Source: Escherichia coli (GTDB lineage: Bacteria > Pseudomonadota > Gammaproteobacteria > Enterobacterales > Enterobacteriaceae). Taken from it: 64,000 nucleotides of DNA. The notes under the pieces are model-generated. The model was not told the origin of the DNA and made no database searches. It saw nothing but the letters and a program-made list of their open reading frames with translations. The translations under genes were made by a program, and so were the position numbers. Within the stretch, counting starts at the first letter, position 1. Each line of letters starts with the position of its first letter. The stretch is taken from the NCBI RefSeq assembly GCF_001677475.2, contig NZ_CP015229.1, one strand, 5' to 3'. Below, one piece after another: positions 39,050 to 59,938 of the stretch.

Positions 39050-39320
39050 AGTATTGTCGGATGCGTCGCGCGCCGCATCCGACACCATGCGCAGATGCCT
39101 GATGCGACGCTGGCGCGTCTTATCATGCCTACAGGTCTGAACCGTAGGTCGGATAAGGCGCTCGCGCCGCATCCGACACCGTGCGCAGATGCCTGATGCG
39201 ACGCTGGCGCGTCTTATCATGCCTACAAGTCTGAACCGTAGGTCGGATAAGGCGCTCGCGCCGCATCCGACACCGTGCGCAGATGCCTGATGCGACGCTG
39301 GCGCGTCTTATCATGCCTAC
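39050..39320. repeat. REP/BIME array (three tandem ~119-bp units)
   Basis: Three near-identical copies of ...GCCGCATCCGACACCGTGCGCAGATGCCTGATGCGACGCTGGCGCGTCTTATCATGCCTAC... after prpE. Confidence 0.75.
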
Positions 39321-39472: not shown

Positions 39473-39836
39473 GTGTCGCAAGATAACAACTTTAGCCAGG
39501 GGCCAGTCCCGCAGTCGGCGCGGAAAGGGGTATTGGCATTGACGTTCGTCATGCTGGGATTAACCTTCTTTTCCGCCAGTATGTGGACCGGCGGCACTCT
39601 CGGAACCGGTCTTAGCTATCATGATTTCTTCCTCGCAGTTCTCATCGGTAATCTTCTCCTCGGTATTTACACTTCATTTCTTGGTTACATTGGCGCAAAA
39701 ACCGGCCTGACCACTCATCTTCTTGCTCGCTTCTCGTTTGGTGTTAAAGGCTCATGGCTGCCTTCACTGCTGCTGGGCGGCACCCAGGTTGGCTGGTTTG
39801 GCGTTGGCGTGGCGATGTTTGCTATTCCGGTGGGCA
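39473..39836 (+). pseudogene. codB: cytosine permease CodB, 5' fragment (first ~121 codons) cut by element insertion
   Basis: Frame MSQDNNFSQGPVPQSARKG... matches the CodB N-terminus up to ...AIPVG, then diverges into element sequence and stops. Confidence 0.85.
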
Positions 39837-39921
39837 CCACATAGGTCAATACCACCACAATAAAATTTTCCAATAAAAAAGCCCCATCACAAGGACAGGG
39901 CTATAGAATCAATTACTTACA

Positions 39922-40227
39922 TCACTTAATGTCTTTCATTCTACGAATACGCGCGCTTGCTTCGGATAGTTCTTCCAGTGTTACGTGATGTGCAAGCATA
40001 TAGACAGGAGTCGGATCGAATCCCTCGTGAGTATTGATCAGATGACTATTCCCGCCTTTAAACTCATCCTGTCCATCCCATATAGCGTACACGTCATCTT
40101 CTGCTACATAGATAATCAATCCAATAGGGGAGTCAGTAAGCTGGAAGATGCAGCCAGTAGAATCAATGCGATGTTCCCGAACGTCATCAACAGTTTCAAA
40201 GTCAATCTTAATATCTTTAGTCTTCAT
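39922..40227 (-). CDS. hypothetical protein (att-proximal cargo)
   Basis: 101-aa ORF with a GAGGG SD; no recognisable motif. Confidence 0.5.
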   Translation of the reverse strand: MKTKDIKIDFETVDDVREHRIDSTGCIFQLTDSPIGLIIYVAEDDVYAIWDGQDEFKGGNSHLINTHEGFDPTPVYMLAHHVTLEELSEASARIRRMKDIK

Positions 40228-40527
40228 GATTTGCCCTCGCGTGAAAAATATTTTCGATTATTTATAAAAAAAGACTTGACAAAATCAAAAGGTACTGTTC
40301 CACTGGTGAAATAAAGGGAGTTTTCGGCACCCCGGTTTTTGATGTGCGTGTGAGATTTCAAAACAGGTGCAGTGCAGCCCACCAGCGCGGTCGCTACGCG
40401 ACTATTAACACCCGCCAATCCCTTTCCCCGCCTCGATCTTTCATCTCGTTATAAATCGTTTTAGGCGCTCTCCTGAATGCGCAGATCAGATAAATAATTT
40501 TACGCAAATTTAAAGGAGGATAACCGG

Positions 40528-41079
40528 ATGAAAGAAGAATTAACCCTTACAGAAATTTCCCGCTTATACGGCTATACAATTAACGCCGCTAAGAAATGGC
40601 AAGAACGAGGAATGCCATTTAATACCAATACACGACGCGTACCAGCCAAAGAGGGGACCGAGTGGGTATTAAAAAATATCATCAACCCGCTTAAAGAAAC
40701 TACTGTCAAGGAACAAATCGACGTAGAGAAGTTACGCCGTGAGAGAGCATTAGCGGATGCAGCCGAACGAGAGAACCAGGAAGCAATGAATCTCCTGATT
40801 CCGGTCGGTTATGTAGAACAGGAACTAGCGGAATATTGCGGAAAGGTGAAACAGACTATTTTGCAGATCGCCACAATCGATGCTTTAGAAATTCTTGAAT
40901 CTGCCACTGACCAGAAAACATTGAAGAATAAGCTAAGGGAGATCATCGAGCGTCGTTTAAATGAAGTAGGGGACTTGTTCGAAAATGCGGATTTGGGAGA
41001 AGACGAGGAAGAAGAATTACCATTAATCGATGAACCGGAACAAGAACCAGAAGAAGACGATGAATTTGATGTGTCTTAA
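40528..41079 (+). CDS. Nu1-like terminase small subunit candidate (HTH DNA-binding, acidic C-tail)
   Basis: N-terminus LTLTEISRLYGYTINAAKKWQERGMPF resembles the lambda Nu1 winged-HTH region, followed by EKLRRER and a coiled coil; strong AGGAGG SD. Confidence 0.45.
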   Translation: MKEELTLTEISRLYGYTINAAKKWQERGMPFNTNTRRVPAKEGTEWVLKNIINPLKETTVKEQIDVEKLRRERALADAAERENQEAMNLLIPVGYVEQELAEYCGKVKQTILQIATIDALEILESATDQKTLKNKLREIIERRLNEVGDLFENADLGEDEEEELPLIDEPEQEPEEDDEFDVS

Positions 41080-41177
41080 AACGCGTTATAAATAAATGTA
41101 TGAAAGATGTTGAGCTGGTCAACGTCTACGGGGGGAATCACCCCCCGCTAACCTTTTTCTTATTTGAGGATTTACCT

Positions 41178-41279
41178 ATGGTTGAATTTTTGATTTATCT
41201 GGCTGTAGGATTAACTATCGTATATTCACTGGCACATATTGGCATTTCTACTTTGTGTAACGCTTTCAAGTATCATTAA
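41178..41279 (+). CDS. 33-aa hydrophobic peptide
   Basis: ATG after a GAGGA SD; single predicted TM segment (MVEFLIYLAVGLTIVYSLAHIGISTLCNAFKYH); not in the ORF track (under 60 aa). Confidence 0.3.
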   Translation: MVEFLIYLAVGLTIVYSLAHIGISTLCNAFKYH

Positions 41280-41332
41280 TTAAATCGATGAATTGAACTA
41301 TAGATGATGGTCGTTTTCAAAGAGGATTATCT

Positions 41333-41506
41333 ATGGATCTTTTTGTCTATTTCGCTACTCTGCTGTTTTTGACTATCGTCGCTGGCATTAAATTGATTTT
41401 TATCTCGCTGGTGGTGTTTTTCAAATTTCTAATCGGTACGCCTTACGGCTGGGTATGCTTCTTCTTGTTTATTCTTTTTAGTTGCTGTAAATCAGACACT
41501 AAATAA
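41333..41506 (+). CDS. 57-aa two-TM membrane peptide
   Basis: ATG after an AGAGGA SD; MDLFVYFATLLFLTIVAGIKLIFISLVVFFKFLIGTPYGWVCFFLFILFSCCKSDTK. Confidence 0.35.
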   Translation: MDLFVYFATLLFLTIVAGIKLIFISLVVFFKFLIGTPYGWVCFFLFILFSCCKSDTK

Positions 41507-41665
41507 TATTGTAATCTGCCTTTCTCCTACATGGTTATTAACAGGGAATTTTCGAAAGAGAGTTCCCGATTAAAAGCCATAAAACACACTCCAGTACAGT
41601 GTTTTCATAGTCAGTGATCTATACATCATAAAAACATAACAAGTATAGATTGAGTGTTAATCCTC

Positions 41666-41690
41666 CCGCCCTTCGGGGCGGTTATTTTCT
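41666..41690 (+). terminator. intrinsic terminator (UUCG-tetraloop hairpin plus U-run)
   Basis: CCGCCC-TTCG-GGGCGG followed by TTATTTT. Confidence 0.5.
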
Positions 41691-41767
41691 GGCTTTACTA
41701 GATAATGTAGCATCATGTTCATTATAAACCTCATCTTTGTTGTGCAAACCTAACCTTAACCTAAGTA

Positions 41768-41800
41768 TAGGGAGTCTCTTAAATGGGACTCCCTTTTTTT
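41768..41800 (+). terminator. intrinsic terminator
   Basis: GGGAGTC...GACTCCC hairpin followed by TTTTTTT. Confidence 0.55.
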
Positions 41801-41801
41801 A

Positions 41802-42044
41802 TTATGCAACCACTCGAAGTGTAGGTTTCTTATGTTGTGTAGGTTTATTGCCATTTCGCCACTCAGGAAACACCTGATCCATCATAACCGCGTTAGTTTC
41901 ATCAATCAGCTTTAGAGTCTTTCGTAATGCGGCGTTATCAGCTTTAAGCGATTTAATCTCTGAATCCATCTTAGCCATACGCTCTTTCATGTTGGTAATT
42001 TCTAACATCAGATTACCCAGAAATTCTTTGTTTTGATTAATCAT
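41802..42044 (-). CDS. small coiled-coil protein
   Basis: 80 aa; SD AGGGGTAATT upstream; heptad-rich (MKERMAKMDSEIKSLKADNAALRKTLKL). Confidence 0.5.
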   Translation of the reverse strand: MINQNKEFLGNLMLEITNMKERMAKMDSEIKSLKADNAALRKTLKLIDETNAVMMDQVFPEWRNGNKPTQHKKPTLRVVA

Positions 42045-42059
42045 AGAATTACCCCTCTA

Positions 42060-51538: not shown

Positions 51539-53539
51539 ATGCTTAAATTTCGCCGCGATCTTAACGGTTACGGTGGAGTTATTAACGAAGGGCATAACGA
51601 TCAATACGAATTTGAAATTGCTTTCTCCAGTGAACAGCCTTATCAGCGCCAATTCTGGGATGAGCAAAATCAAGAAATGGTGGTATTAGATGAAATTCTG
51701 GTACATACACCGGAAGCGGTTGATCTGTCTCGTCTGAATAATAACGCTCCGTTGCTGTTCAATCACAATTTCGATAATCACATTGGTGTCGTTTGTAACG
51801 CTCGAATCGATGCGGATAACGTAGGTCGTGCTCTGGTTAAATTCTCCAAGCATGGGACTTTGGCTAATGATATTCGTAACAAAGTCATCGAAGGTACGAT
51901 GGAAAAAATTTCTGTCGGCTATGACATTAAAGAGTATCACATCGACTACGCCAAATCGCAACTCATTGTTTCTAAATGGATTCCTCACGAGGTTTCATGG
52001 GTCACGGTACCCGCAGACGACACAGTGGGTCTGAATCGCTCTCTAAATACTATCACAGTTAATTTGGAGGCTAAACGCGATATGACTAAAGAACAAATCG
52101 AAGAAATCAAAAACGAAGAAGCCGCTCCGGTTGAAGAAACTCCGGTAGAAGAAAATAAAGAACCGGAAGTTGAAGAAACTCAAGAGCGCCAAGTTGAAGA
52201 GAATAAAGAAAATGAAAATCTCGAAGACGGAAAAGACGCTGAACATCCTGAAAGTGTTGATGATGATAGTTCAACTGTTCGGGAAGAAGAAATAAAAGAA
52301 GAACGTGAAGCTGCTCCGGTTGAAGAAGAAAAAATTGAAGAAGTGGCTGAACGTTCCGAAGAAGACGAATTAGAAATCCGCGAGATCGCGCGGGAACTAA
52401 ATATTGATGACTCTGAATTAGCACGTGCATTGTCGATTAAAGACATGACGCCGGAAGCATTCCGCACTAAGGCACTAAATAATCTCGTCAATGCTCAACG
52501 TAATAACGAACAACAAATTAAGGACTCTAAAATGGAAAAAACTTTTGACCTGAACAACGTAATTCGCTCTCTGGTAGATGGTGCTGCTCTGGGTGCTAAC
52601 GAAGCTGAATATTCCGCTATGGCTGCTACTGCAACTATGCAGCGTGGTCGTGCTGCTCGTGGTGGCTCCGTATTCGTTCCGGCTGCTGCTCTGCGTGCTG
52701 CTGCTGCTGGTAACACTAAAGCTACTCTGGAAGCTGTAACCGACGAAAAACTGCTGACTGAATCCTACATCGAAATGCTGATGCCTCAGAGTGTTTTAGG
52801 CCGCCTCGGTGTGACCGTTCTGTCTGGTCTGAATAGCCCGATCGCTGTTCCGAAAATGACTGCTTCCAGCGTTGACGCTTTCGGCTTCGTTGATGAAAAC
52901 GGTGCTGCACCGGAAAGCAAAGCTCAGTTTGAAAACGTGAAAATGGCTCCTAAGACTTTCGCAGGTGGCAACCCGATCAGCCGTCAGTCTCTGAAAACCG
53001 TTCCGGGTATCGCTACCCTGATCACTGATCACATTAACAAAGCTGTTCGCATCAAACTGGAACAACTGATTCTGTCTGATAAAGCTAACGACCGTGGTCC
53101 GGCTGGTCTGGTTAAGCAACTGGTAGACGCGGGTCGCGTTACTAAGAAAGCCGCTTTCTCTTACAAAGACTTCCTGAAAGAAATTGCAGCACTGACCGAC
53201 GCTGGCGTTCCTGCTCAGGCGATCAAGTTTGCGATGAGCGGTGCAACTGCTGCTGAACTGGAATCTACCCTGAAAGATAACGGCGTTTCCGGTTATATCA
53301 TCGAAAACGGCAAACTGGCTGGTTACGAAGTAGTTACTTCTGGTGTTATCCCGGCAGACCACATCGTTCTGGGCGCGTTCGACGGTATCACCATTGGTGA
53401 GTGGGGCGGTCTGGAACTGGATATGGACGACACTACCTACCGTGCACAGTCTGCAATCGTTCCGCGTATCTGGGTAGATCTGGATTACGTTGTAACCCAG
53501 CCGGAAGCTCTGAAAGTTCTCCAGATTGGCGGTGAATGA
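51539..53539 (+). CDS. prohead protease - acidic scaffold - major capsid polyprotein (in-frame, with internal start at 52532)
   Basis: N-terminal S78-like protease motifs (APLLFNHNFDNHIGVV, SVGYD, VSWVTVPADD); E-rich linker; C-terminal ~335 aa with optimised codons and capsid-like composition; internal ATG at 52532 with AAGGA SD. Confidence 0.75.
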   Translation: MLKFRRDLNGYGGVINEGHNDQYEFEIAFSSEQPYQRQFWDEQNQEMVVLDEILVHTPEAVDLSRLNNNAPLLFNHNFDNHIGVVCNARIDADNVGRALVKFSKHGTLANDIRNKVIEGTMEKISVGYDIKEYHIDYAKSQLIVSKWIPHEVSWVTVPADDTVGLNRSLNTITVNLEAKRDMTKEQIEEIKNEEAAPVEETPVEENKEPEVEETQERQVEENKENENLEDGKDAEHPESVDDDSSTVREEEIKEEREAAPVEEEKIEEVAERSEEDELEIREIARELNIDDSELARALSIKDMTPEAFRTKALNNLVNAQRNNEQQIKDSKMEKTFDLNNVIRSLVDGAALGANEAEYSAMAATATMQRGRAARGGSVFVPAAALRAAAAGNTKATLEAVTDEKLLTESYIEMLMPQSVLGRLGVTVLSGLNSPIAVPKMTASSVDAFGFVDENGAAPESKAQFENVKMAPKTFAGGNPISRQSLKTVPGIATLITDHINKAVRIKLEQLILSDKANDRGPAGLVKQLVDAGRVTKKAAFSYKDFLKEIAALTDAGVPAQAIKFAMSGATAAELESTLKDNGVSGYIIENGKLAGYEVVTSGVIPADHIVLGAFDGITIGEWGGLELDMDDTTYRAQSAIVPRIWVDLDYVVTQPEALKVLQIGGE

Positions 53540-54436: not shown

Positions 54437-55270
54437 ATGAATATTACACAAGATAACTTAGACATTTTCACGGGGTCGCATGTTGAAGTCTCCTTGTCTA
54501 CTATGGTGGATAACCAGCCGGACTTTTTCGATCCTGCATTTAGTCCTATCGAGAACATCGCAGCATTCCCGACGATAACCGAATCCACAGAGATCCAGAC
54601 GTTAGAAGAATATGACCATGATGTTACTGGTAAGTTGGCTGGCTATCGTAAACTTGAATCAACTACGTTAGTAGTAAACCGTGTTCTGGATGATGAACAT
54701 CAAGACATGTTGATGAAAGCGGTGAATGATAAAACTCCTTTACGCTTTCGTATGTTCTATGTTGTGAACTCTGGTTACAGTGCTGCTAACACAGGTTACT
54801 ACGTCATCTTTGACGCTTTCGTCTCGTCACATAAAACAAAATCCGGCGATAACAAAGTTACTACAATCGAGTTTAAATTAGAACCTGATGGCGGGATTCT
54901 GGATCGCGGTATTGCTACCGAAGGCCGGATCTTACGTCAAGGTGATTTTGGTCTGGGTGCTGGTGTAAATCCATTCACGGGTCCGATTGATAGCGAAGCA
55001 TTAGCCGGAAACCGTTTCGTAACCTATCAGGGATCGAGCGCATCTAACCCATTTAGTGCTGATACTTCACTAATTCACGTTCAACCTAATGAAGATGGAG
55101 GATGGCAATTAACTTGCACCGCCTCCGGCGCACCACGTTTACGAGTTCGCACAGTCCAGAAAGATGGTAATTCTGGATGGGTGAAAGTGTATTCCACAGA
55201 AGAAAAACCGACACCAGCCGAGATTGAAGCCGTTTCTATCCATGACAGGATCGATTTCGGGGAATACTGA
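54437..55270 (+). CDS. virion protein (neck/tail-tube-like candidate)
   Basis: 277 aa; AAGGGGTAATA SD; Gly/Ser-rich beta-type composition. Confidence 0.5.
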   Translation: MNITQDNLDIFTGSHVEVSLSTMVDNQPDFFDPAFSPIENIAAFPTITESTEIQTLEEYDHDVTGKLAGYRKLESTTLVVNRVLDDEHQDMLMKAVNDKTPLRFRMFYVVNSGYSAANTGYYVIFDAFVSSHKTKSGDNKVTTIEFKLEPDGGILDRGIATEGRILRQGDFGLGAGVNPFTGPIDSEALAGNRFVTYQGSSASNPFSADTSLIHVQPNEDGGWQLTCTASGAPRLRVRTVQKDGNSGWVKVYSTEEKPTPAEIEAVSIHDRIDFGEY

Positions 55271-55346
55271 TTGCTTCTCTAAATAAAAACATGACGCGGG
55301 GAGGTTAACGCCTCCCTTATTCCTGTTTTTATAGTGAGGTGATTAG

Positions 55347-58274
55347 ATGCAATCAATCCAATTTAAACGAACTAGTGTTTCTGGCAAAAAACCTACGCCG
55401 GAACAATTACAGGTCGGTGAGGTAGCAATCAACCTTAAAGACCATGTTATTTTCACCAAAGACCGAGATAATGCCGTAGTTCAAATCTCTGTTTCTCCTG
55501 AAACTCACACTGCATTAGAAACTAAAGTTAATGCGAATAAGAAAGAATTAGACGGCAAGATTACTACAAATCACAACAATATTAACGCTAAAGTAGATGA
55601 AATTAAACAAACTACTGATGCAACTATCGCAGCAAATCACGCAGAAATTAACAATAAAGTTGATGTGATTAAGCGCGAAACCGATGCGACAATCACGGCT
55701 AATAAAAATAAAGCTGCTTCCGACCTTGCTGGCGTTAAAGCTGAATTGTCCGATACCATCACCGCTAATAAAAATGCGGCTGCTGTAGCAACTCAGGAAC
55801 TGGACACCCGCATCAATAAAAAAGTTGATGATAACAAAGCTAAAACTGATGCAACTATCGCCAGCAATCACAAAGCAATCAATGACAAAGTTGATTTGAT
55901 TAAGGCCGAGACTGACCGCACTATCGCAGCAAATAAAACATATGCTGATACTCAGCTAACTAATGCTACTAATGATCTGAATACTGTCATTGCTGCAAAT
56001 AAAAAAGAAGCTGCTGATAGCGTGGCTGCATTAACTAAGACTGTAAACACTAAAGATACAGCGATTCATAGAAAAGTTGACGAGAATAAAGCACTGACCG
56101 ACGCGGAATTATCCCGTTTGTCTGGACGACTTGAAGATGTTGCTAGTATTGGTCAAAACCGAGGCGAATTGCCAGTAGATGCTAATCTTGATCACTATGG
56201 TCCACGTTCAGAATTTGCTGGTATTTGGGGTAAATCGACTTCAACGAATGCACAACCAAGTCACAATTTCCCAGAAGAAAATGCTGTAGGTGTTCTGGAA
56301 GTTTTCACAGGCGGTCAATTCTCTGGGACTCAGCGTTATACAACACGCTACGGTAATATCTACATTCGTTCTCTTACCGCTACATGGAATGGTACTGATG
56401 GTCCGTGGTCGCCGTGGCGCAATATTCAGATGGGTACACGTCCGCTTTCGTCAACCATCGATCTTAATGATTTGGGTGGAGTTGAGCATTTTGGTTTATG
56501 GCGCAATAGCTCTAACTCAATTGCGGCTCTAGAAAGGAATTTCCCAGAAGCTGGGGCGATGGCACAAGGTCTTTTAGAAGTCTTTGAGGGTGGCAACTAC
56601 TCCCGCACTCAGCGTTATACGACCAGAATGGGCGTTGTATATGTTCGCTGTCTTGCTGCTGCATGGGATGCTAGTGCTCCTAAATGGGGTCCGTGGCAAC
56701 AAGTAGGTAATGTAACACCGTCTACTTTCTATGACGGAAACCTGAACAACTTCAAAACACCTGGTTTATATAACATTTTAGGCACTGACAAAGTTACTAA
56801 CCGTCCTGTTGCAGAAGGTGTTCCGGTTGAGATGACCGCATTGCTTGAGGTTAAACAGCGTGCTTCCGGTGGCGCTATTTTCCAACGTTTCACTACCGCA
56901 GGAACGGGAACTACTACCCGTGGTCGTGTTTTTGAACGTGCAATGACAAATAATATCTGGGGAGATTGGCACGAAGTACATACATCATATTCTATGCCAA
57001 TTACTTTAGGTATCGGTGGGATTAAAACACAATTAGAATCTTTAGATTGGCAAACTTTTGATTTTGTTCCTGGTAGCATGTTTAGCGTGCCATTGAATAA
57101 AATTACCAATATGCCAGCAAAAATGGATTGGGGAACAATTGACGGAAACCTGATCATGTTTTCCGTTGGTCCTAGTGAACACACTAGCACAGGGCGTACT
57201 GTTCAGGTTTGGCGTGGTACTGTGTCTCAAGCAAACTACCGTTATTTTGTTGTTCGTGTATTTGGTAATTCAGGAGAGAGAACTTGCACCGTTCGCCGTG
57301 TTGCTCTTGAGGATGGTCGCCATACATGGACAGCACAACAAGATTTTAACGGCGCGGTTAACTTCGGTGGGTCTGTTGTTAACTTTAAAACAGCCACTAA
57401 CTTTAATAACACTACCAGTTTTAAAACAGAAGCTAAATTTCTTTCATCTAATGCATTCCGTATGTATGGCGGTAATTTTGGTGCATTCTTGCGTAATGAT
57501 GGTGAAAGTGTTTATCTTCTTTCCACCAATGAAAATGATAAAGATGGAAACTATAATACAAATAGACCTTTCCGGTATCAGTTAAAAACTGGTGATGTTA
57601 CTTTGGGTGGAACTAGCGGTGCTGATATTTTAAGATTAAAAAGTAGTTCTCTTGCTGCTACCTTTGGCGGTGATGTTAATTTAAGTAAAGGCGTATTGAC
57701 GTTTGAAGCTGGCGGTAAGCAATCTCGCGATTATTTCCGGTTTAATCATTGGGGTGATAGCAATAAAGCTCGCGATAACATCATTCAGTTAGAAGATAGT
57801 AAAGGTGCTCATTTTTCCACTGAACGCACACTGGCAACGGGTGCAATCAAAACTAAGTTCTTTGGTGAAGTTGAATCCGATGGTCGATTAACTATTAAAC
57901 GTCCGGGTGATGCTATTGTATTATCGACTACAGCTAGCAACTCGTTGCATATTCGTGGTGATGTTGGTGGAAGCAATAACTGGTATATTGGTAAAGGTGG
58001 TGCTGATAATTCACTAGCATTTTATAGCTACGCAACTAAAGCGGGTATACACATCACAAATAATGGTGAGATATCATTTGCCCCGCAAAATTTTGCTGGT
58101 ATTAACATTAACAAAGACCGTATCTATATCAATGCTACACAATGGATTGCTAATCATTCCGGTTCATGGGATGGACAGTGGAGAGAAGAAGCACCCATCT
58201 TTATTGATCAGGGTAGTGTTGGACAAGATAGCTATTATCCTCTTATTAAAGGACATAGCCAGATCACAGGTTGA
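55347..58274 (+). CDS. long fibre / receptor-binding-like protein, 3' end interrupted by an IS3-family element
   Basis: 975 aa: N-terminal alpha-helical repeats (TDATIAANH..., TDATITANKN..., TDATIASNHK...), then three ~55-aa tandem domains (…TQRYTTRYGNIYIRSL…, …TQRYTTRMGVVYVRCL…, …FQRFTTAGTGTTTRGRVFERAM…); stop codon TGA is the first 3 nt of the IS. Confidence 0.6.
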   Translation: MQSIQFKRTSVSGKKPTPEQLQVGEVAINLKDHVIFTKDRDNAVVQISVSPETHTALETKVNANKKELDGKITTNHNNINAKVDEIKQTTDATIAANHAEINNKVDVIKRETDATITANKNKAASDLAGVKAELSDTITANKNAAAVATQELDTRINKKVDDNKAKTDATIASNHKAINDKVDLIKAETDRTIAANKTYADTQLTNATNDLNTVIAANKKEAADSVAALTKTVNTKDTAIHRKVDENKALTDAELSRLSGRLEDVASIGQNRGELPVDANLDHYGPRSEFAGIWGKSTSTNAQPSHNFPEENAVGVLEVFTGGQFSGTQRYTTRYGNIYIRSLTATWNGTDGPWSPWRNIQMGTRPLSSTIDLNDLGGVEHFGLWRNSSNSIAALERNFPEAGAMAQGLLEVFEGGNYSRTQRYTTRMGVVYVRCLAAAWDASAPKWGPWQQVGNVTPSTFYDGNLNNFKTPGLYNILGTDKVTNRPVAEGVPVEMTALLEVKQRASGGAIFQRFTTAGTGTTTRGRVFERAMTNNIWGDWHEVHTSYSMPITLGIGGIKTQLESLDWQTFDFVPGSMFSVPLNKITNMPAKMDWGTIDGNLIMFSVGPSEHTSTGRTVQVWRGTVSQANYRYFVVRVFGNSGERTCTVRRVALEDGRHTWTAQQDFNGAVNFGGSVVNFKTATNFNNTTSFKTEAKFLSSNAFRMYGGNFGAFLRNDGESVYLLSTNENDKDGNYNTNRPFRYQLKTGDVTLGGTSGADILRLKSSSLAATFGGDVNLSKGVLTFEAGGKQSRDYFRFNHWGDSNKARDNIIQLEDSKGAHFSTERTLATGAIKTKFFGEVESDGRLTIKRPGDAIVLSTTASNSLHIRGDVGGSNNWYIGKGGADNSLAFYSYATKAGIHITNNGEISFAPQNFAGININKDRIYINATQWIANHSGSWDGQWREEAPIFIDQGSVGQDSYYPLIKGHSQITG

Positions 58275-58334
58275 ATCGCCACGGGTTTAACAGACACCTC
58301 AGAGTCATTTAAGATGGCTTAAAGAGAGGTGCCC

Positions 58335-58613
58335 ATGAGCGGTAAGCGTTATCCCGAAGAGTTTAAAATTGAAGCAGTCAAACAGGTTGTTGATCGCGGT
58401 TATTCTGTTGCCAGCGTTGCAACACGTCTCGATATCACCACCCACAGCCTTTACGCCTGGATAAAGAAGTACGGTCCGGATTCTTCCGCTAATAAAGAAC
58501 AGTCAGATGCTCAGGCCGAGATCCGCCGTCTCCAGAAAGAGCTGAAGCGGGTTACCGACGAACGGGACATATTAAAAAAAGCCGCGGCGTACTTCGCAAA
58601 GCTGTCCGACTGA
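58335..58613 (+). CDS. IS3-family transposase OrfA (HTH)
   Basis: MSGKRYPEEFKIEAVKQVV... HTH and leucine-zipper region ending ...ILKKAAAYFAKLSD. Confidence 0.85.
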   Translation: MSGKRYPEEFKIEAVKQVVDRGYSVASVATRLDITTHSLYAWIKKYGPDSSANKEQSDAQAEIRRLQKELKRVTDERDILKKAAAYFAKLSD

Positions 58614-58669
58614 GGTACGCCTTTATCCGTGACAACACCTGTTGCTGGCCTGTTCGCCTGCTCTGTCGG

Positions 58670-59482
58670 GTGCTGGATGTTCATCCCAGTGGTTTTTACG
58701 CCTGGCTTCAGCAGCCGCATTCACAACGCCATCAGGCAGACCTGAGGCTGACAGGGCAGATTAAACAGTTCTGGCTGGAATCGGGATGCGTCTATGGTTA
58801 TCGCAAAATCCATCTGGATCTGCGGGACAGCGGGCAACAGTGCGGAGTGAACAGAGTCTGGCGACTGATGAAACGTGTCGGGATAAAGGCTCAGGTCGGA
58901 TACCGGAGCCCGCGGGCACGTAAAGGCGAGGCCAGTATCGTGTCGCCCAACAGGCTCCAGCGACAGTTCAATCCGGATGCTCCGGATAAGCGTTGGGTAA
59001 CGGACATAACCTACATCAGGACCCACGAAGGCTGGCTGTATCTTGCCGTGGTTGTTGATCTGTTCTCACGCAAAATTATCGGCTGGTCCATGCAATCCCG
59101 GATGACAAAGGACATTGTCCTGAACGCACTGCTGATGGCTGTATGGCGCCGTAATCCCCAAAAACAGGTGCTGGTTCATTCGGATCAGGGCAGTCAGTAC
59201 ACAAGCCATGAGTGGCAGTCGTTCCTGAAATCACACGGCCTGGAGGGCAGCATGAGCCGTCGCGGTAACTGCCATGATAATGCGGTTGCAGAAAGCTTTT
59301 TCCAGTTGTTGAAACGCGAACGGATAAAGAAAAAGATCTACGGAACGCGGGAAGAAGCCCGCAGCGATATTTTTGATTACATCGAAATGTTTTATAACAG
59401 TAAGCGTCGGCATGGTTCCAGCGATCAGATGTCACCGACAGAATATGAAAACCAGTATTATCAACGGCTCGGAAGTGTCTAG
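58670..59482 (+). CDS. IS3-family transposase OrfB (DDE catalytic domain; made as OrfAB by -1 frameshift)
   Basis: DDE integrase-core motifs (…WVTDITYI…, HSDQGSQYTS, …RGNCHDNAVAESFF…). Confidence 0.85.
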   Translation: MLDVHPSGFYAWLQQPHSQRHQADLRLTGQIKQFWLESGCVYGYRKIHLDLRDSGQQCGVNRVWRLMKRVGIKAQVGYRSPRARKGEASIVSPNRLQRQFNPDAPDKRWVTDITYIRTHEGWLYLAVVVDLFSRKIIGWSMQSRMTKDIVLNALLMAVWRRNPQKQVLVHSDQGSQYTSHEWQSFLKSHGLEGSMSRRGNCHDNAVAESFFQLLKRERIKKKIYGTREEARSDIFDYIEMFYNSKRRHGSSDQMSPTEYENQYYQRLGSV

Positions 59483-59500: not shown

Positions 59501-59938
59501 GACAAATTTATTAAATTTGGAATCACTACCCGAAAACCAGAAGAACGAATGAGAGAGCAAACCAGAAAGAGCAACTTCACTCACCGATTAATCTTTACTC
59601 ATGAGTTTGAGGATGGTTGGAAAGCTGCCGATTTAGAGCATGAAGTAAAACAACGCTTCAAGACTCATGCCGCACCCTACAAAGATTTCAAGGATGGATG
59701 GTCGGAAACTCTGACTATCGATGAGTTGCCACACTTACAGCAACTGGTTTATGACTACCTAACCAATCAACCGGACGAGGCTAATATGTGGGTATCCCCG
59801 AAAGATGTATTTGATGACGATACATTCAAGCTACATACTCACTTCTACGGCATCAATAAACCGGAATTTTTCTGTATTGATGACGATAGTCCTGATTTAA
59901 TGGATGAATACTTTAATTCTCTCTTAGACGCTGCCTAA
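59501..59938 (+). pseudogene. T5orf172/GIY-YIG-like domain remnant, in frame with the fibre gene across the IS
   Basis: Frame DKFIKFGITTRKPEERMREQ... is open from the IS edge with no start of its own and is in frame with 55347-58271 once the IS is removed; motif resemblance is from memory. Confidence 0.4.

Follow-up and report, generated by a model that had tools for sequence, protein, structure and literature searches.

A probable Nu1-type small terminase gene set apart from its large terminase gene in an IS-damaged codB prophage of Escherichia coli

Introduction

The terminases closest to the system described here are those of the lambda type, in which the small subunit gpNu1 (PF07471), a protein of about 180 aa, carries a winged helix-turn-helix (HTH) domain followed by a helical region and has a gpA-type large terminase as its partner; the two genes abut one another, and cosN and cosB lie upstream of Nu1. 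A different arrangement is found in P2, a cos phage in which the small and large terminase genes (terS and terL), M and P, are set apart by about 2-3 kb of head genes, namely N for the capsid and O for the scaffold. M codes for the small terminase gpM and P for the large terminase gpP (PMC13100340). A Nu1-like N-terminal DNA-binding domain is also present in RppC of the E. coli PICIs (6hlk, 6hn7), and Rpp is a satellite protein that hijacks the TerS of its helper and comes from islands that have no terL, portal or capsid genes. The cf-PICIs of Proteobacteria have the order hnh-terS-terL and are devoid of tail and lysis genes by design (10.1101/2022.09.08.507074).

Here we describe a locus on contig NZ_CP015229.1 of E. 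coli (GCF_001677475.2), where a stretch of 64,000 nucleotides, referred to as the window, was analysed as a whole. Its candidate TerS has in common with lambda gpNu1 (1j9i) and the Nu1-type domain 6hn7_B the W-QE-G-MP motif of the winged HTH, and with the former also the size, the helical region after the HTH, a gpA-type presumed partner and a candidate recognition block upstream of the gene, as cosN/cosB lie upstream of Nu1. It differs from gpNu1 in its very low identity, which leaves it below the Pfam gathering score, in a strongly acidic C-terminal tail and in the 6.4 kb that lie between terS and terL. Compared with P2, the terminase proteins belong to unrelated families and the genes are separated by an early/regulatory region rather than by head genes. 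Unlike the Rpp islands, the element in the window has terL, portal and protease-capsid fusion genes, to which its complete relatives add tails and lysis genes. Unlike the cf-PICIs, it has no HNH gene beside terL, its terS is not adjacent to terL, and its collinear relatives have tail, baseplate hub, tail-tip and endolysin genes, which the element itself lost through an IS-associated deletion. Neither the prophage lineage nor the separation of its terminase genes was described in the literature that was searched.

Results and Discussion

The coordinates of the element and its modules are given in Table 1.

Table 1. Features of the codB element in the window (a slash marks the junction point in the att sequences)
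Feature	Coordinates	Strand	Evidence or remark
attL, codB 5' part to prophage junction	39826..39846	.	…ccggtggGC/accacatagg
Conserved non-coding block, candidate cos/TerS recognition site	40290..40406	+	upstream of terS
terS, probable Nu1-type small terminase subunit	40528..41079	+	ORF, phrog_57, A1 profile, AF2, hhalign, dN/dS
Intervening early/regulatory region	41100..47408	both strands	
Two small strongly hydrophobic ORFs, 59 and 57 aa	41100-41279, 41333-41506	+	directly 3' of terS, without family match
Coiled-coil genes	41802-43046	-	
Rha-family gene	45463-46305		ends plus-strand block
Two genes diverging from terL	46546-46803, 46806-47408	-	
terL, gpA-type large terminase, presumed TerS partner	47497..49404	+	PF05876 E 2.8e-55, PF20454 E 2.7e-44, phrog_15 E 2.1e-135
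Head module	49477..53539	+	
Head-tail joining protein	49477-49971	+	
Lambda-type portal	49982-51493	+	
Prohead protease/major capsid fusion	51539-53539	+	
Tail module remnant	54437..58274	+	
Major-tail-protein-like gene	54437-55270	+	phrog_158
T-even gp37-like tail fibre gene, 3'-truncated	55347-58274	+	phrog_1699, profile 92-822 of 1000
IS3-family transposase ORFs	58329..59482	+	orfA 58329-58613, orfB 58670-59482; phrog_157 E 1.6e-114
Large serine recombinase (integrase), 565 aa	60012..61709	-	phrog_95 E 1.5e-55; XisF-like match
attR, prophage to codB 3' part junction	62911..62931	.	gatatgttagGC/aaggcaacc

Identity of the putative small terminase subunit

The first-pass annotation of the window had singled out a 183-aa ORF as a Nu1-like small terminase candidate, and our sequence analysis supports both the ORF and the proposal. 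The ORF is intact, starts with ATG, runs for 183 codons and is preceded at 7 nt by an AAGGAGG Shine-Dalgarno sequence. Comparison with four relatives gave a dN/dS of about 0.10, indicating purifying selection and therefore no chance ORF. In PHROGs the product matched phrog_57 'terminase small subunit' (E 2.6e-15) with residues 1-164 against positions 9-186 of a profile of 199. The match of the protein itself to Pfam Phage_Nu1 (PF07471) covered the HTH region only (residues 10-31; 15.4 bits, E 0.015) and fell short of the curated gathering cut-off of 30 bits, and an NCBIfam search of the protein matched no model. A subfamily profile built from 12 sequences (A1) was then compared with the PDB, revealing matches to 6hn7_B, a TerS N-terminal domain (E 2.7e-4), to 1j9i, lambda gpNu1 (E 1.6e-3), and to 7lw0 (E 7.9e-3), with the KKWQERGMPF segment that had been read as Nu1-like aligned to QNWQEQGMPV of 6hn7_B. 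Among 1.84 billion representative proteins A1 found 627 relatives at E <= 0.001, mostly 150-200 aa in length and aligned end to end; all 60 relatives that were sampled matched phrog_57, and 36 of the 60 matched PF07471 at E <= 0.001. With the protein below the PF07471 cut-off but 36 of its 60 sampled homologues matching that family, it would thus be a divergent relative of Nu1, connected by transitive homology, rather than a direct Pfam member. None of the profile searches, which had been proposed as a check, assigned it to a non-terminase HTH family.

Close homologues (54-99% identity) are confined to E. coli and Salmonella and are mostly unnamed, a few being labelled terminase small subunit; the protein P0001 is 99% identical, and the nearest copy among complete E. 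coli genomes has 96.7% DNA identity. The gene is carried by 62 of 5426 complete E. coli genomes, and nearly all of these 62 have it in RefSeq as a 'hypothetical protein', an annotation that the present assignment would correct to TerS. Matches to UDP-sugar epimerases (phmmer with the single sequence against the PDB, E 0.019, and weakly with A1) were rejected as noise from the helical region.

The AF2 model, which is of moderate quality (pLDDT 68, pTM 0.28), predicts a winged HTH at residues 4-39 (strand-helix-helix-strand), helices at 40-88, 93-125 and 129-153 and a disordered acidic tail at 155-183, and this predicted layout is the usual one for TerS. The acidic tail had been pointed out in the first pass, and is borne out by the last 30 residues, of which 17 are D/E and none K/R. 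Structure prediction, also suggested as a check, was consistent with the winged HTH, the helices and the tail; the fold searches gave no significant match, Foldseek against the PDB and BFVD returning nothing at E <= 0.001 (best 6hn7_B, E 0.64). Being an extended helical monomer with a pTM of 0.28, the model is unsuitable for fold search.

Genomic context of the homologues

In locus L013 (GCA_051222925.1), a related serine-integrase prophage, the TerS homologue (P0089; phrog_57, homologous over about 145 residues at 27-28% identity) extends into the start of a gpA terL sharing 38% identity with that of the window, and the genes that follow (a protein of about 165 aa, portal, protease-capsid fusion) come in the same order as in the window. 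Alignment of A1 with this TerS by hhalign gave a probability of 99.15% (E 3.8e-19) over 144 columns. A more distant homologue (P0103, in L014) also abuts a gpA gene, and therefore the family occupies the canonical terS slot. The terL of the window codes for both the gpA ATPase and nuclease domains, and Pfam, PHROGs and NCBIfam searches of the ORFs of the element revealed no second terS candidate. The two ORFs just upstream of terL, of which the 46546-46776 product had been put forward as an alternative TerS, lie on the opposite strand, have no family match and appear unrelated to the TerS family by hhalign (probabilities of 2.3% and 0.1% for 46546-46803 and 46806-47408, respectively). At the level of sequence comparison, we regard the context of the homologues as the decisive evidence for the identity of TerS.

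The protein might otherwise be a DNA-binding regulator of the Nu1/MerR fold, or the recombination directionality factor of the serine integrase, and no packaging subunit. Winged HTHs are common to excisionases and MerR/BldC/RacA regulators, and 19 of the 60 members sampled from the wider family touch phrog_66 'excisionase and transcriptional regulator'. The position of the gene, 0.7 kb from attL, within about 2.5 kb of the integrase gene on the circular map and not contiguous and co-oriented with the late operon, would also suit such a role. However, proteins of the excisionase/MerR-like single-domain kind have about 50-130 aa and are essentially a winged HTH (50-100 aa for the Xis type), whereas the 183-aa protein has a helical oligomerisation-type region in which some 115 residues after the HTH are homologous to TerS, the matches to phrog_57 and to the TerS of L013 taking in the HTH and the remainder alike. 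The homologues that abut terL also speak against a regulator or directionality factor, as do the lack of any other TerS in the phage and the position of terS relative to the early region, which is kept in L007 despite a different integrase arrangement. The suggestion of a regulator rather than TerS, already raised in the first pass, fails because the homology extends beyond the HTH, and we consider it distinctly unlikely. With a probability of about 0.78, the gene codes for a TerS of the gpNu1 type of lambda, belonging to a siphophage-like temperate prophage that a large serine recombinase integrated into codB. This TerS is an ordinary member of a known family with an unusual but lineage-typical gene order.

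Separation of terS and terL

The terS stop and the terL start are 6417 bases apart in the window, and terL begins, as the first-pass annotation had stated, beyond divergent regulatory genes (divergent small genes and a Rha-family gene). A 60-aa HTH-like gene is also present in the intervening region. The gpA terL belongs to the same element as terS, and adjacency of the two was seen in the more distant homologues of L013 and L014. Comparable distances were found in L001 (6544 bases), L015 (6419 bases; TerS about 71% identical to that of the window), L016 (7412 bases; 58%), L007 (6278 bases; 41%), L009 (5322 bases; 35%) and L011 (5456 bases; 33%), so that terS, 5.3-7.4 kb of early/regulatory genes and terL follow one another in seven lineages with TerS identities down to 33%. 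Similar divergent early-type genes lie between terS and terL in these six relatives, all closer relatives examined have terS as their first gene on the plus strand near the left junction of the prophage, and the split-order loci include a complete prophage (L001/L003). In L005, terS is placed after the tail and lysis genes. Three positions of terS were thereby seen, i.e. upstream of the early region, abutting terL and downstream of the lysis genes, and terS is consequently not always to be found by searching beside terL.

The recurrence of the split order in the relatives means that it is an old and stable gene order of the sub-lineage. From these comparisons, the separation of terS and terL appears to be the normal order of the lineage and no sign of a satellite; the early region lies between the two genes in the lineage of the window and upstream of both in L013. 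The split would be a peculiarity of gene order rather than a changed mechanism, and the current view of how terminases work is unchanged by this result.

An IS-damaged prophage in codB

The element has a length of about 23 kb (about 39836-62921) and splits codB, the frame of which breaks after …AIPVG (~39836) and resumes with GKATGLD… (~62921); both junctions have the dinucleotide GC in common. It is flanked by prpE of the prp operon and codB, and the G+C content changes from ~0.57 outside to ~0.42 between the codB junctions. As had been noted previously, terS is located at the left end of the element; its distance from the codB junction is 0.7 kb. A full-length relative in E. coli PRO_A-1412-6M-A_ESBL (NZ_CM136169.1, 176.6-213.9 kb) of about 37 kb is collinear with it and inserted in hicB, and has after the fibre gene tail, tape-measure-sized, baseplate hub, tail-tip and endolysin genes, followed by the recombinase. 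By BLAST, collinearity with L001/L003 is lost at ~57875 and taken up again at 59935 (17046 in L003). An IS3-family element lies directly 3' of the truncated fibre gene, and next to it about 13 kb of the tail and lysis genes of the relative are missing. Collinearity with a complete relative, minus these ~13 kb, therefore identifies the element as an IS-damaged defective prophage and no autonomous island, and by the same comparison it would be a decayed phage rather than a satellite.

The separation of terS from terL had initially been taken as a possible sign of satellite-style redirection of packaging, in which the Nu1-like protein, in the manner of Rpp or SaPI TerS, would divert the terminase or capsids of a helper. 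The small size of the element (~23 kb), which has no tail-tube completion, tape measure, baseplate or lysis genes, the fibre gene resembling those of T-even phages and the weak match to RppC with its Nu1-like N-terminal domain (A1 E 0.021; A2 E 8.8e-9) may all be cited in its favour. However, with a gpA terL, portal and capsid of its own, the element need not redirect the terminase of a helper. The genes that it lacks are present in collinear relatives and were lost beside the IS3 insertion, the order terS, early region, terL is the same in complete prophages, and the traits of cf-PICIs (hnh-terS-terL; tail and lysis genes absent by design) do not apply to the lineage. Since full-length relatives have head, tail and lysis genes and the window copy lost its own by an IS-associated deletion, the redirection proposal fails and is highly improbable. 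Where a tool calls a small element a satellite because its terS is an orphan or its tail module is missing, decayed members of this prophage lineage could be misclassified.

It is also conceivable, if unlikely, that the gene is an intact but functionless relic, a former TerS now unexpressed or unused in a decayed prophage. The prophage is defective (IS3 insertion, truncated fibre gene, ~13 kb of tail and lysis genes lost) and no strong sigma-70 promoter was found upstream of terS on the + strand; against this, neither the ORF nor its Shine-Dalgarno sequence nor the upstream block is damaged, and identities reach 99% (protein, P0001) and 96.7% (DNA, closest copy among complete E. coli genomes). 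The possibility of a relic concerns present activity and not identity, and is compatible with the gene being TerS. With the tail and lysis genes gone, the packaging system in the window probably no longer yields particles.

At the nucleotide level, the tail fibre gene is about 82% identical to the gp37 distal fibre genes of T-even (T4-like) phages, and is thus a T-even-like gene in an otherwise siphophage-like prophage. An endonuclease family (phrog_681) is represented by a C-terminal fragment, the 129-aa ORF at 59549-59938. In a tblastn search of 50,697 phage records the only match was PQ671644 'DCP80', i.e. PQ671644.1 'Escherichia phage DCP80, complete genome' (loci L002, L004 and L018), a record of 141 kb filed under Tevenvirinae, which has at 1.7-26.3 kb a gpA-type terL, portal, capsid fusion and siphophage-like tail module with the TerS homologue last, and in addition a T4-type terL fragment, a tail sheath gene and two ndd copies. 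A reading of the record as a lytic relative of 141 kb, in which terS would follow the lysis genes, was rejected, because the T4-type terL fragment and the two ndd copies make it probably a chimeric assembly of two phages, and the record was used as weak support only.

A conserved non-coding block beside terS

The DNA upstream of terS contains a conserved non-coding block with a GC-rich core, CGGCACCCCGG, that has T runs on both sides and is followed by CGTGTGA, TTTNAAAAC, GTGCAGTGCAG and then the palindrome GTCGCTACGCGAC. An alignment of the DNA upstream of terS from eight lineages has 22 invariant columns, and this non-coding DNA is still alignable despite saturation of synonymous sites in terS itself (dS 1.7 or more between the window and L015, L016 and L017; dN/dS about 0.1). 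An nhmmer model built from the five closest loci only, and searched against 170 kb of independent loci, had its best match in each of six independent loci beside terS and on the same strand. The matches were upstream of terS in L011 (E 5.8e-10), L009 (E 7e-6), L007 (E 2.7e-4), L012 (E 3.6e-3, about 0.9 kb away) and L013 (E 0.027, about 90-120 bp away, with terS abutting terL), and about 50 bp downstream of it in L005 (E 0.21), the two weakest (E 0.027 and 0.21) being convincing solely through their location. In L013 the conserved core is a weak copy, GTTTCGGCCCCCCGATGTTTT. The block was next to terS in every locus examined, including the one in which terS abuts terL; the copy of L005 lies downstream of the gene and that of L012 about 0.9 kb before it, so that the position of the block varies.

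The distance from the block to the terS start is 120-240 bp, which the spacing from cos to Nu1 in lambda matches. We infer that the block is the candidate cos/TerS recognition region, in agreement with an earlier guess that placed a cos or pac site in 40240-40527. It could instead be a promoter or regulatory region, given a conserved TTGACA at the start of the block; a sigma-70 scan upstream of terS found no strong promoter on the + strand. An IHF-consensus scan between the block and terS found no site. The block was rejected as an RNA, since RNAalifold gave no consensus structure (-0.09 kcal/mol) and Rfam had no match for the block and none within the element. The short repeats at 40451-40466 and 40490-40505 were considered as TerS binding sites and discarded, as a single two-copy family is too weak. 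For this uncharacterised group of enterobacterial prophages with a serine integrase, the block beside terS offers a concrete candidate for cos.

TerS would oligomerise via its long helices and bind the block, which would thereby be cos or cosB, with its N-terminal winged HTH, and its C-terminal region would recruit the gpA-type TerL. This would then nick cos and package the DNA rightwards, terS entering first and the early genes, terL and the late genes after it. The 'cos-terS' unit would in that case form the left end of the virion chromosome, with the early region between the unit and terL.

A more speculative extension is that 'cos-terS' forms a self-contained cassette for packaging specificity, moving independently of terL in this phage group, and that the decayed element in the window is a capsid-forming satellite. 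The element keeps cos-terS, terL, portal and capsid and could therefore fill heads with its own DNA, and if this were true, the filled heads could be completed by the tails of a co-resident or infecting phage and a capsid-forming satellite would arise through prophage decay. We rate this as very unlikely.

Other features of the element and its surroundings

Three genes on the minus strand of the early region (43164-43346, 46546-46803 and 46806-47408) have in common a small HTH-like domain, …GI(D/S)xxTFYKxLKKYxIK…, with BLASTP E values of 8e-7 and 1e-3 and no match in Pfam, PHROG or NCBIfam; from their sequences, they look like a paralogous family of putative regulators flanking the early region. 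Between the divergent gene blocks, in an AT-rich and ORF-poor gap of 1.3 kb (43347-44629), lies an array of eight direct copies of CCTACACT on the + strand that occupies 164 bp (43827-43990), the whole window having 11 copies compared with 0.78 expected. By its appearance it may be an iteron/origin or serve for the binding of a regulator; among the genes of the element, none was recognised as a replication gene. Sites that resemble the IHF consensus and are nearly identical, AATCAAnnACTTA, occur three times on the + strand of the element (39907-39919, 46376-46388 and 47448-47460), one of them beside attL and one in the 88-bp gap just upstream of terL.

In the host DNA between prpE and codB there are two tandem Rfam matches to naRNA4, which is REP-derived (39147-39223 and 39241-39317). 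Among the relatives, the cargo in the slot from the left junction to terS, or immediately behind terS, varies (L007, 8747-9643; L011, 11137-12033; L001, 9044-10108), examples being a CAP12/TIR-domain protein, an AbiJ/Abi_C protein and a GIY-YIG nuclease. In the window the slot holds an unrelated 101-aa ORF (39922-40227, - strand), and this place beside terS looks like a defence/moron hotspot.
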